Shown here in pieces: positions 52,565 through 57,447 of a DNA stretch of 64,000 nt (position 1 is its first letter; every line of letters begins with the position of its first letter). This DNA comes from a virus. The stretch lies in the IMG/VR virus record IMGVR_UViG_3300021256_000005; one strand, written 5' to 3'. The notes under the pieces are model-generated. The model was given only the letters and a program-made list of their open reading frames with translations, had not been told where the DNA came from and ran no database searches. The position numbers were made by a program, and so were the translations under genes.

Positions 52565-52679
52565 ACAGTCTCCTTTTATAAATTTATGTTTGGTTTAAGA
52601 ACAGTATAATCCGGAATGGGGTTAAAGTCAAGAGAAAATAAAAATAAATTAAGTATTGACAAAATTAAAAAGTTGTGTT

Positions 52680-53580
52680 ATTTTATTATAATATATATAT
52701 ATTAATTATATATTATATATATTTATATATTAATTATATATAAATTATATATTATTAATATAATATTATTACGTTTTATTCGGCAGTCGTGTCAACGACT
52801 GACGATAGCGTGACGTTGCATCGCAACGGAACGCGCCCCGCCGACAGGCGGCGTTGCCGACAGGCAACTGTATAATAGTATTATATATATTTATATTATA
52901 TATAATATATATTATATTTATATATATATATATATTATATATTTATATTACATACACTTAGACAGCTACGCCAGTAGCTGGCTAACGGTGCTGGTATTGC
53001 GTAGCAATGCCTGCGCCGAAGCGTCGCAGACATATATATTATATATATTATTATATATATATATATATATATATATATATATATTTATATATTATACAAT
53101 AAGATAATATATTTGTCAAGTATAAAATTATAATTATTTTAATAATATATTTAATTAAATATATTTAAGTATTATATTATATACTATATATTTAGTTAAA
53201 TATATTTAAGTATTATTATAATATATAATTATTTATATATTATTATATATCACTGTATATTATTATATAATAATTAAGCACCATAGTTATTATATATTAT
53301 ATATTACTAATTACATACATCATCAATTACATACATTACTAATTACCAGAGTTATTATTTTATTATTGTTTATTGTTTATATACTTTTGGCTCCTTTTGC
53401 TAACGCAAAAGATCACCAAAAGTTCGTATTCCTTCGCAAGCGAAGAAATACGAGTGTAATATATATAAATAAATATATTATTATATTTATATTATTATAT
53501 ATTTATTATATATTATTATATTATATATTTATTATTATTTATATTATTATATATCTATTATTCTGCTGAGTTATATTATA
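52680..53580. repeat. Pure A/T tracts (including a run of about 16 TA units at 53052-53084) interrupted by three GC-rich multi-hairpin islands
   Basis: The islands are 52781-52870, 52961-53031 and 53383-53455. Each consists of 2-4 adjacent 5-11-bp hairpins with 3-4-nt loops. The flanks, for example 52681-52770, contain no G or C at all. Confidence 0.85.
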
Positions 53581-53599
53581 TTAAACAGTGTGGTTGCTA

Positions 53600-56365
53600 T
53601 ATATTATTATTTATTAAATATTTTATCTATTACTTTATCTATCGTTTGTATTATTCATTCACACTATTGAATTGTTATTATATACCCATACAACAACACA
53701 CAGTCATTTTGTGCGCTGTTTTATATATGCAGTTTAATAAGTTTACCCTAAATTATTAAAACGTCTGTATAAGCCTAATAGATATGTTATTTGAGGTGTG
53801 CCTTTTTTGGCGGGTTCTATTTTGTTGCGTGCTAGTTCCTGAGCTGTTTAGTTTATTATTTAATCGCTGTTATTTGCGCCGCCAAATTATATATACCAAA
53901 CGTCCTGTATTTTTAGCGTGTTTGTATTTGTTTGGTTGCCTATTTAGTTTAGTGTTCTGTAAGATGAGACAGTAAACTATTTGGATGTTATATTTAGTTA
54001 TATATTATATTATATATTTATATATTATTGACTGTCCAATTATTTTTCTGCGCCTTGTATCTTTGTCGGCTTTGTTTTATATTATTACTACAGTATTTTA
54101 TAGAACCGCTTGTCTGAAACATGCCTATATCTACACCTATTGATTGTACGCATGTTTTTATGACACCACCCTATAACTTTTACGTCTGAGAATAAAAACG
54201 TCTATATGAGCGTTTTAGAGCATTGTATAATACATTGATGATTGTCTATGTGTTTTGTTTAGTTAAATAAATTTAATTAAATTTCTTTAAGTATTTATTG
54301 GTGCGCCACTAGAAATATAGGCAGTATTTGACTGCTTTGTTTTGCGATGGTAAACTGTATTAAATAATTATTTGCGTGTTTTATTACCGCCTGCGAAATA
54401 GAATAATGTATATTTATTCATTGTTTATACATTTTGACTTGTTTGGTTGTTAATTTTTGCGGCTGTAATTTTTGGTTGTAGCCGTTAATGTTTGCGATGG
54501 TCTGTTTAATGTGTAAATATACCCCGCCTGTTTATTAAGTATGAGATCGCTGTTGGAGTACTTTTTTAATGTGTTTTGTATGTTATTTAGCTGAAAGATA
54601 GTTAAGCCATTAAGCAGTCAATTAGTTTAGATGATTGTTTTATGTTTGATTGAACAGAGCAATAGTGGTTGTTTCGTATTATTATATAGCACTTAAATGA
54701 TTGCTATTGTTTTGCTGATGGTTTATTCTGCGTTATTAGACAGCTAATTAGTTGAGCAGATATATGCTAATTTGTCCGCGCTGTAATTAGTTTATTTATT
54801 GGAGCAGTAAGTGATTTGCTAGTTCTATATTGCAGTTGTTTAGTCAGTGATGTTTGATGTTAAATTAGTTAGGTTCCTAACTAACTAGGTGCTAAGCCAT
54901 TTTTGTGGCGACTGAGGGTGTTATTTTATATTAATTATATATAGTTACTAATTAGTTACTAGTATTTAGCGGTTGATAATATAGTGCAGGACAATTGCCT
55001 AATTTATATGGTTACTTATTGGTTACTAATTATGTTGTTGTTTTATGCAGTGAGTGGATTCTATTAGGCGATTGAGAAGTTGATTCTGGCAGTTAATTAT
55101 TATTGAATTAAGCCGCTGAATTACTTTATTTGATTGTTGTTTTGGAAGGTGTTATTTTGTGTTGATTCGAAATTATTAGGACGTGATGTAACTAATTGTA
55201 GTTACTAATTGGTTATTAGTTACTTATTAGGTATTAAGTATGTTGTTAGTTATTTATTAGTTACGTTGCGATTTATTTAGTTGCTTCTTAATTTATTTAT
55301 GTTTTGTAATATTACTTATTCTGCGACTGATTAAGTATTGGGAAATTCATTAATCTACTGATTTTGTTATGGTTTCTAAGATATCTTCTGACGTAAAATT
55401 GGTTTTGATTAATAGTTAAATATATTTAATTATTTAGTTGAGTAGTTTTACGATTGCTGTATTGATCTGATTGTAGTTGGTAAGAAGTAATATTATTGGC
55501 TGTTAGAACTATATGGTATTAGCAGAGTATATGATTGTTGTAGTTTAGTGGTTAATTTGTTGTGTTGTTTAATTATTAAACAGTGATTTATTTAGTAGCG
55601 AGCAACAATAAGTAATAAGTTTTTAGTTAGAGTGTTAATTAGTTGTAGTGCTGATTGAACACTGATGGTTTAGTAGTGATTTATTAGAGTGATGATTGAT
55701 TTATTTATGTTTTGGTAAATTTATTTGGTTTTTGTAAATAATTTTAGGTAGATATATTTAATTATTATTTATAATGACTGAGTTGGCAAGTTATGAATGT
55801 TACTTGAAGTATTCAATTCATTTTAATAAGCCTGAGATTTTCTTGTGTCGATTTAACTTATTGAGAGTAGTTTTATAGGACGCAATTCTGATGGAACAGT
55901 TTAACAATAAGGCTACTTGATCGTTTAATTAATTAGTTAGTTATTAGGTTTTTAGTTTTTTAGAGATTGATTTAGTGGATAGTTATTTATTAATGCGGGA
56001 TTTGGTGAGTAGAACTTTTATTTAGTGAATGTGGCAGTTTGATAAGTAGGTGATGGTATAGGTTGTTAGTTAGTAATGTTGATTGGTGGTAGTGTTTATA
56101 GATTAGTGGTTATTTAGTGAATTAGTTAGTGATTGTTGCTGATGTTGATTGGTTGATAGTGTATTAGTTATGATGTTTGTTTGATTGATAGGTGTGATGG
56201 CTGTTTGTGGGTGAGTGAGTTATTTGGTAATTTTATTTGATTTTTTTGTAATTAGTTTTTGTTAGTTTCTTTAATAGTGAGTTATTTATTTGGTGAGTTT
56301 GTTGGATTTTTGGAATGTTAGTGAGTTTTTAGTGAGTTGGGAAGTGAGAAGGGTGAGATTTTGAC
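53600..56365 (+). other. About 2.7-kb ORF-free tract, G+T-rich on the plus strand, with C depletion increasing rightward
   Basis: By my count there are 7 C in 55921-56364 (444 nt). Stop codons are dense in all six frames. Confidence 0.85.
54943..55265 (+). repeat. Cluster of at least 8 GTTACTAAT / GTTACTTAT / GTAACTAAT iteron-like motifs
   Basis: Copies occur at 54944-54953, 54955-54964, 55011-55020 and 55022-55031. Further copies are at 55188-55197, 55201-55210 and 55219-55228, with degenerate copies out to 55265. Confidence 0.7.
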
Positions 56366-56617
56366 GGGGTGTGTGAGTTTACCTCCATATAGCTATTTTA
56401 GCTTTACACTTTTGTCAAAATGTATAAATAACCCCCTTTTGACGTCGGATAATAAAAATTACCCGACATGGCACTTTTTTGACATTTATGTCAAAAACTT
56501 AATAGTTAAATTTTTTTAACTAATTTTTTAATTATATATTATATATTATGCATAATATATTATATATCATATATTATATAAAATTATATTTGACACAATA
56601 TAAATTTCCAGAGCAAC

Positions 56618-56718
56618 AAAATACTTAAAAATCTTTAACCATTCCCATCCCATCAAAAATACTTAAAATAATTTAACTATTATTTTTGCTCTAAAAATAC
56701 TTAAAAATTTTTAACTAT
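56618..56718 (-). repeat. Three direct repeats (about 38-bp period) of AAAATACTTAAAA-N-TTTAAC(C/T)AT, the reverse complement of the TAGTTAAA-N-TTTAAGTATT boxes
   Basis: Copies lie at 56618-56642, 56655-56680 and 56693-56718. They sit 100-200 bp upstream of the consensus promoter at 56815. Confidence 0.75.
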
Positions 56719-56814
56719 CTCACCAGAACAAAAAATATATTTCATCAAATATAATTTGATACAACGTTATGCTGCACGTCACCAAACAAAAAATAAATTT
56801 TTTCCAAAAACCTA

Positions 56815-56843
56815 TTGACACAACGCGATACTAGTGCTATACT
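56815..56843 (+). promoter_or_regulatory. Near-consensus sigma-A/sigma-70 promoter with an extended -10 and an A/T-rich UP-like tract
   Basis: TTGACA (56815-56820), a 17-nt spacer ending in TGC, then TATACT (56838-56843). Upstream is aaaaaataaattttttccaaaaa. Confidence 0.8.
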
Positions 56844-56849
56844 ATAGTC

Positions 56850-57430
56850 AAGATAAAGATATAACTTATTTATCTTATCGTTCGGGCACTCTGCCCGCCC
56901 ACCGCTATCACAGCGGGCGTACCTTGACAAGTTACCTGTTGGTAACTCATAAGATAGGAGAACACCGTGACGGGTGAACTCTGCCTATCGTTAGTTTGAT
57001 AATTCTAACGCCTAAAAATTATCAGCCTATCTATAGGCGTAGTTTGCATACCCATGATAGGTTTACTATGAAATCGGCAACTGAAACCGTAGTTATGATA
57101 GAGTCGTTTAGACTCAAGTAGTCGGGTACAAGCCGAGTAGTAAATTGGGATTCATGGCAGACAAACTACAGCTATAGACAGGTGACTTACCCTTTGTATA
57201 TGTGAGGGTGTCGGGCTTTTCGGGTGTCCCATCAATACATCCAGGACGAAAATCATATACCGAACAAAATTGTCAACCGACGTGCCAGGGGTTGAATGTT
57301 TGCGGACTCAGTGCGCTTAAATAGCAGATAAATTTACACCGCAACATTGGCCGCCTGGTATGTCGTTACCTTGTAAGTTGCTTTAATTGCATGAGTTTAT
57401 CGTGCAATTAACGCAACTTATAAAGCGCAA
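56850..57430 (+). ncRNA. About 580-nt helix-rich untranslated RNA (long leader or stand-alone large ncRNA candidate)
   Basis: No ORF of 60 aa or more in this orientation. GC content is clearly higher than the surroundings. Many local hairpins are present: cgggca/tgcccg, agttacc-tgtt-ggtaact at 56930-56947, cgttag/ctaacg, and a 17-bp hairpin at 57374-57420. Confidence 0.5.
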
Positions 57431-57447
57431 TAAAAAAGGAGAAAACT

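Follow-up and report, generated by a model that had tools for sequence, protein, structure and literature searches.

The window analysed here is a 64,000-nucleotide (nt) stretch of viral DNA, IMG/VR record IMGVR_UViG_3300021256_000005, in which a 4.9-kb region without genes (52565-57447) lies between two divergent gene arms. The longest start-to-stop open reading frame (ORF) of this region, hereafter the desert, is 67 amino acids (aa) long. The window is otherwise tightly packed; its other intergenic gaps are no longer than about 0.6 kb, and the second-largest gap, of about 0.6 kb, is occupied by a ROOL RNA. The interpretation developed below, which we hold with middling confidence, is that the desert is an expanded and fused packaging and transcription control region, a version of the short region upstream of yonP-yonO in phage SPbeta.

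The gene-free region and its flanking arms

The left flank of the desert is a gene for a UvrD-type helicase (50825-52564, - strand; UvrD_C/UvrD-helicase, E 1e-50). Beyond it leftward lies the gene for a 926-aa YonO-type RNA polymerase with the RdRP/two-barrel fold (PF05183), and genes for an HU-like protein and for YonJ-, YonG-, terminase- and YonD-like proteins follow further left. The large terminase gene occupies 40283-42055, 14 kb from the candidate core described below. By its gene content, this arm is the late arm of an SPbeta-like phage, and in SPbeta itself the YonO-type polymerase transcribes the late genes (PMC5467207). On the right, the first rightward ORF starts at ATG 57448 and is preceded by the ribosome-binding site (RBS) AAGGAG; the early operon further right encodes GmrSD-like and ArdC-like proteins. 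The proteins neighbouring the desert are the UvrD-type helicase and early proteins with no assigned function, among which no Rep, DnaA or primase domain was found. The nearest cultured relatives are distant, with YonO identities of 25-31% to Bacillus SPbeta-group, Enterocloster and Clostridium phages. Gut samples are rich in metagenomic relatives, and one other variant of this lineage was found in them (YonO 98%, early region 79% at the nt level).

An earlier note on this DNA had described a gene-free region of an SPbeta-like phage, built of TA-only tracts with GC hairpin islands, a G+T tract, repeats, a TA palindrome, a promoter and a 0.6-kb RNA. All of this holds: the YonO-type polymerase and the YonJ-, YonG- and YonD-like genes identify the phage group, the flanking genes end at 52564 and begin at 57448, and each part is found in its place. 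The features are listed below from left to right; folding strength is given as minimum free energy (MFE) and as a z-score, and identities refer to relative L013, introduced after the list.

52565-52690, both strands: promoter zone beside the helicase gene, of putative activity, from a consensus scan and direct reading
52631..52603, - strand: leftward promoter-like TTGACT-17-TATACT, from a consensus scan
52656-52684, + strand: rightward promoter-like TTGACA-17-TATTTT (TG), from a consensus scan
52685-53600: TA-only tracts in four blocks, including (TA)n at 53055-53085; GC 0.13-0.29; from repeat analysis and TRF
52771-52872: GC hairpin island 1, four tandem hairpins; MFE -50.3 kcal/mol; z = -4.8 (+), -3.2 (-)
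52951-53031: GC hairpin island 2; MFE -37.8 kcal/mol; z = -3.5 (+)
53119..53091, - strand: perfect leftward promoter sequence TTGACA-17-TATAAT, from a promoter scan
53154-53214, + strand: two dyad operator-like sites RTTAAA-N4-TTTAAGTATT, 41 bp apart, with 0-1 mismatch
53386-53456, - strand: GC hairpin island 3, two strong hairpins on this strand; z = -8.3 (-), -5.8 (+)
53600-54200: T-rich transition zone with recurring words of a T-run plus GCG; no credible ORF
54200-56380, + strand: C-depleted G+T tract; C 1-10%, skew rising rightward
56292-56711: conserved core, a candidate packaging site (pac) and operator block; 92-100% identity
56318-56365, + strand: four GTGAG units in 11-nt phase (TTAGTGAGTTT twice, GGAAGTGAGAA, GGGTGAGATTT) with G-runs at the end; TRF period 11, 100%
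56419-56436, + strand: box AATGTATAAATAACCCCC, common to SPbeta-like (YonO) phages
56479-56494: palindromic operator-like TTGACATTTATGTCAA, overlapping a rightward promoter-like site; 100% conserved
56501-56524: dyad site TAGTTAAATTTTTTTAACTA; 100% conserved
56529-56590: palindromic TA block centred on ATGCAT (inverted repeat I21; TRF)
56618-56718, - strand: three dyad sites GTTAAA-N4-TTTAAGTATT with 0 mismatches and 38-bp spacing (a 3 x 38-nt array)
56815-56843, + strand: early promoter TTGACA-17-(TG)-TATACT; 11/12 consensus positions plus TG extension, both hexamers conserved
56850-57440, + strand: structured RNA, about 590 nt long, which runs to the RBS AAGGAG of ATG 57448; MFE -206.7 kcal/mol, z = -10.2

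The region opens no credible ORF under alternative codes. With codes 4 and 15, in which TGA and TAG are recoded, no frame exceeds 138 aa and the frames are of low complexity; long frames appear only if two stop codons are ignored, which is an artefact of composition and not a gene. The small ORFs of the desert (e.g. 53784-53975 and 56337-56519) are likewise dismissed as hydrophobic, T-rich junk without an RBS.

The desert is real and is not an assembly artefact. The contig NODE_590 of a different assembly (ENA ERZ12302812) is identical over 6.1 kb save one mismatch, so two assemblies agree within 1 base. A contig from a third sample (Logan contig SRR29381473_135301, here relative L013) is 79% identical and aligns over 55152-58036, so that the region is both present and conserved in a relative; no relative covers 53600-54200. 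Short-read contigs of this phage end at the TA tracts (52.78-52.87 kb; L001, L011 and L012 among them) or at 57.3-57.4 kb. Such breaks are expected because the sequence there is TA-rich or otherwise of low complexity, and the contig ends at 52.8 and 57.3 kb were rejected as DNA termini for the same coincidence. In the Enterocloster phage CB457P1 (L104), the last 411 nt end, within the intergenic region upstream of YonO, in 51 nt of poly(A)/poly(T); the ends of this 'linear genome' were rejected as termini and ascribed to a poly(A) artefact and an assembly break.

Searches with the desert itself and with its helicase returned almost nothing. A blastn search of the whole region against 50,697 phage records gave one TA-repeat match, exact-pattern scans of IMG/VR with segments of the core and of the RNA gave zero or chance matches, and a locus search of IMG/VR by helicase gave no match. 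The late arm also holds two elements that lie apart from the desert: a full-length ROOL RNA (RF03087, 300 bits, E 5e-68) at 43126-43683 (-), between the YonJ-like and YonG-like late genes, and, far to the left, a single ORF of 3679 aa (15217-26256, -), presumably a giant tail, tape-measure or fibre protein. The SPbeta yonN-yonK gap, which is analogous to the ROOL site, has been described as holding an 'unannotated non-coding RNA' and a YonO transcription start (PMC5467207). The Rfam search of that gap found only a DUF3800-VIII RNA (L101 16174-16239).

A polar C-depleted tract that ends at a conserved box

The G+T-rich tract spans about 53.7-56.4 kb (2.2-2.7 kb). Its composition over 54200-56400 is A.26, C.07, G.22 and T.45, and the GC skew of the + strand rises from +0.3 to +0.89 toward the right end; the - strand holds about 22% C and 7% G. 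By RNA folding, neither strand is more structured than expected (z near 0). In 160-nt windows the MFE of - strand RNA is about 0 kcal/mol across 55920-56319 and at most -9 across 55360-56320. When single-stranded DNA is folded, the + strand of the tract reaches -25.9 and the - strand -18.6 kcal/mol per 951 nt, whereas a coding control of the same length reaches -105.3 kcal/mol; the folding energy of the tract is 4-6 times weaker. The + strand carries recurrent UAG/GAG-rich words, clusters of the 11-nt repeat GTTACTWATT at 54932, 54999 and 55189, and dyad sites at 54276-54295, 55411-55434 and 55747-55766.

Comparison with L013 separates composition from sequence in this tract. The composition is held in L013 (C 1.5-7.5%) at an identity of about 70% with many indels, and the islands of 90-97% identity are the dyad sites and one 11-nt repeat cluster. 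An approximately 80-nt segment (55774-55850), which contains a 34-aa ORF and is the least conserved aligned spot (38-50%), is absent or replaced in L013; the tract therefore tolerates indels. The divergence of the tract, about 0.30, is below the 0.51 measured at 4-fold sites of the adjacent gene. Because the 4-fold sites of the right arm are nearly unskewed (0.05), the composition of the tract is local. The 4-fold skew on the coding (-) strand of the left arm is +0.28, and a genome-wide mutation bias is rejected as the cause of the tract by the 4-fold-site composition. On this two-variant alignment, the tract is constrained by composition, not by sequence.

The core at the right end of the tract is the best-conserved part of the desert. 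Identity to L013 is 92-100% in the core, about 88% in the structured RNA, 78% in the adjacent 191-aa gene and about 70% in the tract; the 191-aa coding sequence (CDS) is 77.8% identical overall and 49% identical at 4-fold sites. Such conservation fits a site that co-evolves with a near-identical terminase arm (YonO is 98% identical in L013). The motif GTGAGT occurs 9 times where 2.4 are expected, and the GTGAG repeats are conserved in L013. The C-run motif that ends the tract is rarer still: the pattern AATGTA-N4-10-CCCCC matches once in the window against an expectation of 0.03. Across phages the box has the consensus (A)ATGTAAAnAnACCCCC(C)ATAT, and the skew of the C-depleted tract peaks beside it.

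The dyad sites form a 20-bp, partly palindromic family. Its matches with at most 2 mismatches in the 64-kb window all fall within the desert, and 18 matches are found with at most 3 mismatches against 4.2 expected. Because the three tandem copies keep their half-sites in L013 while the spacers have diverged, they bear the signature of protein-binding sites. The pair at 53154-53214 sits just upstream of the perfect leftward promoter, and family members overlap or flank promoter-like sites elsewhere. The dyads are most simply operators of a putative dimeric regulator of the divergent promoters; their sequences are unrelated to the repeated element deduced for SPbeta (probably the SPBRE bound by MrpR), and no gene of the window was identified as a repressor.

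The box stands at the equivalent place in L013, L031, L032, L050, L025, L026 and SPbeta, oriented alike with respect to yonO and preceded by a C-poor tract. Loci L025 and L026 have YonO proteins of 31% identity, and L031 and L032 are independent metagenomic lineages. L025 and L026 carry about 20-25 tRNA genes downstream of YonO (15530-19332 and 15615-19921, respectively); they are binned as Treponema and Odoribacter metagenome-assembled genomes, in which the phage contigs are probably mis-binned.

The position of the box in cultured phages points to packaging. In SPbeta the order is yonR, a 952-bp gene-free gap and yonP-yonO-yonN. The site at which the genome is opened and the start of packaging lie between yonR and yonP according to restriction mapping and pile-ups of reads (Kohm et al., bioRxiv 10.1101/2021.11.22.469490, citing Fink and Zahler 1982); packaging is of the headful type, and a block of about 250 bp after the opening point is conserved (bioRxiv 10.1101/2021.11.22.469490). 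In BUCT082, a phage of the SPbeta group, the linear record starts 192 nt past the box and runs toward yonP-yonO. The Enterocloster phage PMBT24 is of the pac type, and its PhageTerm pac site is base 1 of the record (PMC11035940). An inverted pair of TACCCCC(C)AT lies 200-262 nt from this site, and a tract depleted of G on the YonO-sense strand occupies about 300-900, where the GC skew is -0.92 to -0.95 and decays away from pac. GenBank annotates CDSs of 31-68 aa in or beside this tract (L105 158-998), which are probably not genes. The polarity of the tract, with a G-poor YonO-sense strand, is alike in PMBT24, the window and L031, and the gradient is strongest beside the box. In related phages, about 200-300 bp separate the box from the genome start, whether mapped or recorded. 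The module of box and asymmetric tract adjoins that start in the genomes compared, and the window carries this module in its best-conserved block. What is shared with the phages of mapped opening point is the box of about 17-20 nt and the polarity of the C-poor tract, with no longer alignment.

Two other identities of the box were rejected. It is not the SPBRE/MrpR operator, as the SPbeta repeated element is deduced to lie beside yonP, about 400 nt from the box. A 15-22-nt element ACAAATACAAATAATATGTATA at 11487-11510 of SPbeta (L101) is common to the upstream regions of yonP, yonX and yonT (2 mismatches); its place is 30-50 nt upstream of yonP, it differs from the box and it is probably the SPBRE bound by MrpR. 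Nor is the box a YonO late promoter, as no copy was found in the yonN-yonK gap, the place of the mapped YonO start site.

Lineages L031 and L032 have 2-3-kb deserts of their own (L031 12332-15257; L032 4912-6895), with the same order of parts as each other and as the module of the window. A terminator after a gene for a TraG/VirD4-like ATPase is followed by a C-poor tract, the box AAATGTAAACTATCCCCCC(C)ATAT, direct repeats, TA-rich DNA, a consensus promoter and a leader of about 500 nt (z = -4.0 in L032, -1.2 in L031). These deserts share composition with that of the window but no sequence homology beyond TA low complexity. The L031 contig (SRR7903765_209318) also carries a Twister-P5 ribozyme (19912-19969) and a Pistol ribozyme (21434-21505) between small early genes. 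A survey by the TraG/VirD4-like gene in JGI metagenomes (69 loci) found the desert in the closest lineages only, L031 and L032/L033; at about 38% identity in this survey the site is filled by genes, among them an M23 peptidase and a DGQHR-motif protein that is possibly DndB-like. YonO relatives of 46-56% identity mostly have no desert beside YonO, and their regions of high G-skew are ordinary purine-rich genes, not equivalents of the tract.

The right end of the desert carries the near-consensus early promoter and the structured RNA. The RNA is about 88% conserved in L013 against 78% for the CDS. When the MFE fold computed from the window alone is laid on L013, 139 of its 184 pairs are unchanged, 12 are kept by one-sided changes, 7 are compensatory, 13 are broken and 13 are gapped; RNAalifold gives 154 pairs with 7 compensatory. 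By a rough calculation made by hand for 12% divergence, about 1 compensatory pair is expected by chance, and the covariation comes from two sequence variants. Judged by these folds, the element of about 590 nt is a real structured RNA with a provisional fold, and it appears to precede the early operon as a structured 5' leader, presumably controlling or stabilising that operon. Rfam covariance models gave no hit in the desert at the gathering threshold and, at E <= 5, two spurious TA-repeat matches; no match to ROOL, GOLLD, riboswitches, ribozymes or introns in Rfam was found for the leader. A covariance model of its core domain found no homologue among 21 related loci.

A proposed packaging role and the competing explanations

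The desert occupies the place of the SPbeta packaging region, a gene-free divergence point with the helicase and YonO operon to the left and the early operon to the right. Of the four roles that the earlier note had offered, a loading array for a packaging factor is therefore the best supported, by synteny and by the box common to phages of mapped pac. The desert is best read as the central cis-acting region of the phage, made of two fused modules, a TA-rich promoter region of the YonO operon and a pac and early control region, because PMBT24 has both, about 9 kb apart. Pac would most likely lie in or just to the right of the core (56292-56711). The terminase may recognise the phased GTGAG repeats, the box and the palindromes of this core and cut within a few hundred bp of the box. 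Packaging would then proceed leftward into the tract, which would be the first DNA packaged and a part of the terminal redundancy of the first headful; the leftward direction is suggested by the wording 'left side' and 'counter-clockwise' for SPbeta and by the direction of the BUCT082 record. The sigma-70 promoters and the hairpin-studded TA tracts may serve the leftward helicase/YonO operon. In the latter, the - strand of island 3 reads as a first hairpin followed by ACUUUUGG, and a terminator-like match lies at 53453..53424, so that island 3 is terminator-like for leftward transcripts. Operators of the putative dimeric protein would be spread over the region, with the consensus early promoter facing right and the structured leader RNA placed before the first early gene.

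A role of the tract in end processing is more speculative and draws on general knowledge of how DNA ends are processed. After injection, resection might expose a G+T-rich 3' tail of the + strand, and the redundant copy might expose a complementary C+A-rich tail. Strands without C (or G) cannot fold on themselves, and they might favour recombinase loading (Chi-like or RecA-friendly) and strand annealing, or act as an exonuclease buffer. Tentatively, and as a proposal that we regard as possible rather than probable, YonO-type phages may share a packaging-end module in which an asymmetric tract of 0.35-2.7 kb, nearly free of C on one strand and most skewed at pac, abuts pac and is selected for its composition rather than its sequence, with both strands free of structure, as a substrate for resection, protection and annealing, or else for R-loop priming, during circularisation or replication of the terminally redundant genome. 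Here it would have grown to kilobase size and become coupled to a new class of structured leader that controls an early operon rich in anti-defence genes.

Several points weigh against a packaging region. The evidence in this phage is contig sequence, in which neither a small terminase nor a protein that binds the operators was identified. At about 17-20 nt the shared box is short, and the copy in the window has TATAAATAA where the consensus has AAACTAT. The PMBT24 motif is a symmetric pair, which leaves its orientation ambiguous, and the start of the BUCT082 record is a putative terminus. The packaging direction of SPbeta comes from a verbal description and from the orientation of the record. 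Known pac sites measure 0.1-0.3 kb, so packaging alone leaves the 2.2-2.7-kb tract and the 0.9-kb TA tracts unexplained, and the end-processing role proposed for the tract is itself speculative.

A transcript-primed replication origin of the R-loop type is the strongest competitor, though we consider it improbable, and it may coexist with pac. Rightward transcripts would form stable RNA:DNA hybrids in the tract, the TA tracts would unwind, and the dyad and 11-nt repeats would be initiator sites. In favour of this, the + strand, which would be the non-template one in rightward transcription, keeps a skew of +0.3 to +0.9 over 2.2 kb. A stretch of about 0.9 kb with (TA)n runs and a GC content of 0.13-0.29 has the composition of an AT-rich unwinding element, and the phased repeats are iteron-like. 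The region also sits between divergent arms beside a helicase gene, and the polarity of neutral-site skew switches across it (+0.28 on the - strand of the left arm; G-rich on the + strand in the tract). However, the promoter scan finds no strong rightward promoter directly upstream of the tract, the tract of L031 begins right after an intrinsic terminator, and the right-arm 4-fold sites show no leading-strand skew (0.05). There is no adjacent initiator or primase gene, and the syntenic SPbeta region is documented as a packaging start. Spread over 3.5 kb, the dyad and 11-nt repeats are just as compatible with operators or terminase sites.

A Rho-dependent barrier or attenuator is quite unlikely. 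Leftward transcripts that are C-rich, G-poor, untranslated and unstructured would load Rho and so insulate the helicase, YonO and the late arm from the early hub. The predicted - strand RNA has the composition of a Rho-utilization (rut) site, with an MFE of about 0 across 55920-56319 at about 22% C and 7% G, and a terminator-like double hairpin lies on the - strand at the far left end (53453..53386). However, an intrinsic terminator of 40 nt would suffice, which makes this an extravagant design, and the one leftward promoter-like sequence leading into the tract is weak (TGGAAA-16-TATAAT, 56610..56583). In SPbeta the MrpR-type element and PyonP are proximal to yonP, downstream of the C-rich tract, and so the tract is not the leader of that promoter. 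This explanation also presumes a host that uses Rho.

One or more long non-coding RNAs transcribed from the tract, acting as a protein sponge or an anti-defence decoy, are very improbable. The tract is gene-free, its composition is kept in the relative and its + strand is rich in UAG/GAG words, but its z-scores are near 0 on both strands and Rfam gives no match. Outside the islands of protein sites it is about 70% conserved with many indels, it has no dedicated pair of promoter and terminator, and the equivalent tracts of other lineages are alike in composition, not in sequence. The suggestion of a non-coding RNA in the earlier note is supported for 56850-57440 only, and its anti-defence decoy found no support.

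We give next to no credence to a non-functional origin, be it decayed genes, junk, mis-assembly or local mutation pressure: short-read contigs often end at the edges of the region and the tract outside its islands evolves fast with indels, but the idea is largely refuted by the two agreeing assemblies, by conserved islands that exceed the CDS in conservation, by the recurrence of the module with the same polarity in at least 6 divergent lineages including cultured phages, and by a tract divergence (about 0.30) below that of 4-fold sites (0.51).

If the desert is a packaging and control region as proposed, the box and the polar C-depleted tract offer a candidate pac determinant that can be tested; the two recur in Bacillus, Enterocloster and uncultured gut phages with YonO identities of 25-55%. 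SPbeta is a model temperate phage for which, to our knowledge, pac site, origin and YonO promoters have yet to be defined by sequence. For phage DNA ends, a cis-element set by its composition would be an unusual design, with kilobases of DNA in which one strand lacks one base. The compositionally extreme tract explains the assembly breaks in these abundant gut phages. The leader RNA, from a genome that also has a ROOL RNA, may belong to the increasing number of large phage RNAs with no assigned function. The interest of the region would rise if the tract proved to be an end-processing or priming element, or if the leader founded a new RNA class.

Comparison with known systems

The earlier note did not recognise the layout from described regulatory regions. 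This needs qualifying: the desert reads as an expanded form of a module present in SPbeta and PMBT24, and the module itself is apparently undescribed. What appears to be new is the recognition of the box and the polar C-depleted tract as a module, its expansion to kilobases, its fusion with TA tracts and the 590-nt leader.

The yonR-yonP region of SPbeta is the closest counterpart. It lies at the same divergence point upstream of the YonO operon, is gene-free and has a repeated operator near the leftward promoter; it contains PyonP with the MrpR-bound SPBRE and the small RNA ncr1052. Its box ATGTAAATATACCCCCATAT follows a C-poor tract of 350-400 nt with the same polarity and a skew of 0.4-0.5. 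However, it measures 0.95 kb against 4.9 kb in the window, lacks the TA-only tracts with GC hairpin islands and the 590-nt leader, and has no helicase gene before yonO. Nothing beyond the box can be aligned between the two. The repressor sites of SPbeta are scattered over its genome, whereas the dyad sites of the window are confined to the desert within the 64 kb.

PMBT24 resembles the window in having a TA-only tract directly upstream of YonO (intergenic region 8797-9612). It differs in that its pac module, at record positions 1-1000, and its TA module are about 9 kb apart with genes between them, whereas the two are fused here. Its tract is also shorter, about 0.5-0.6 kb, is C+T-rich rather than the complement of a G+T-rich tract, and has tiny ORFs annotated inside.

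The classical headful pac sites, such as SPP1 pacL/pacC/pacR and those of P1 and P22, consist of phased short repeats that are read by an oligomer of the small terminase and are asymmetric enough to set the direction. The window is similar in presenting phased short repeats in a non-coding or locally special sequence. Classical sites measure about 0.1-0.3 kb and often lie in or beside the terminase genes, whereas the core of the window measures 0.4 kb, lies 14 kb away and is surrounded by kilobases of extreme composition.

Transcripts are used at non-coding, promoter-rich origins in lactococcal phage c2, ColE1 (RNA II), T4 (oriF/oriG) and the mitochondrial D-loop. Like these, the desert is a control region between divergent units with promoters, strand asymmetry and meltable AT-rich DNA. 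Unlike them, it shows no sign of a processed primer, an initiator or a place of initiation.

The leader is comparable to ROOL and GOLLD RNAs in being about 590 nt long, multi-helical, phage-borne and more conserved than coding sequence, and the genome carries a ROOL RNA as well. It differs from them in being joined to an mRNA as its 5' leader, whereas they are free-standing genes.

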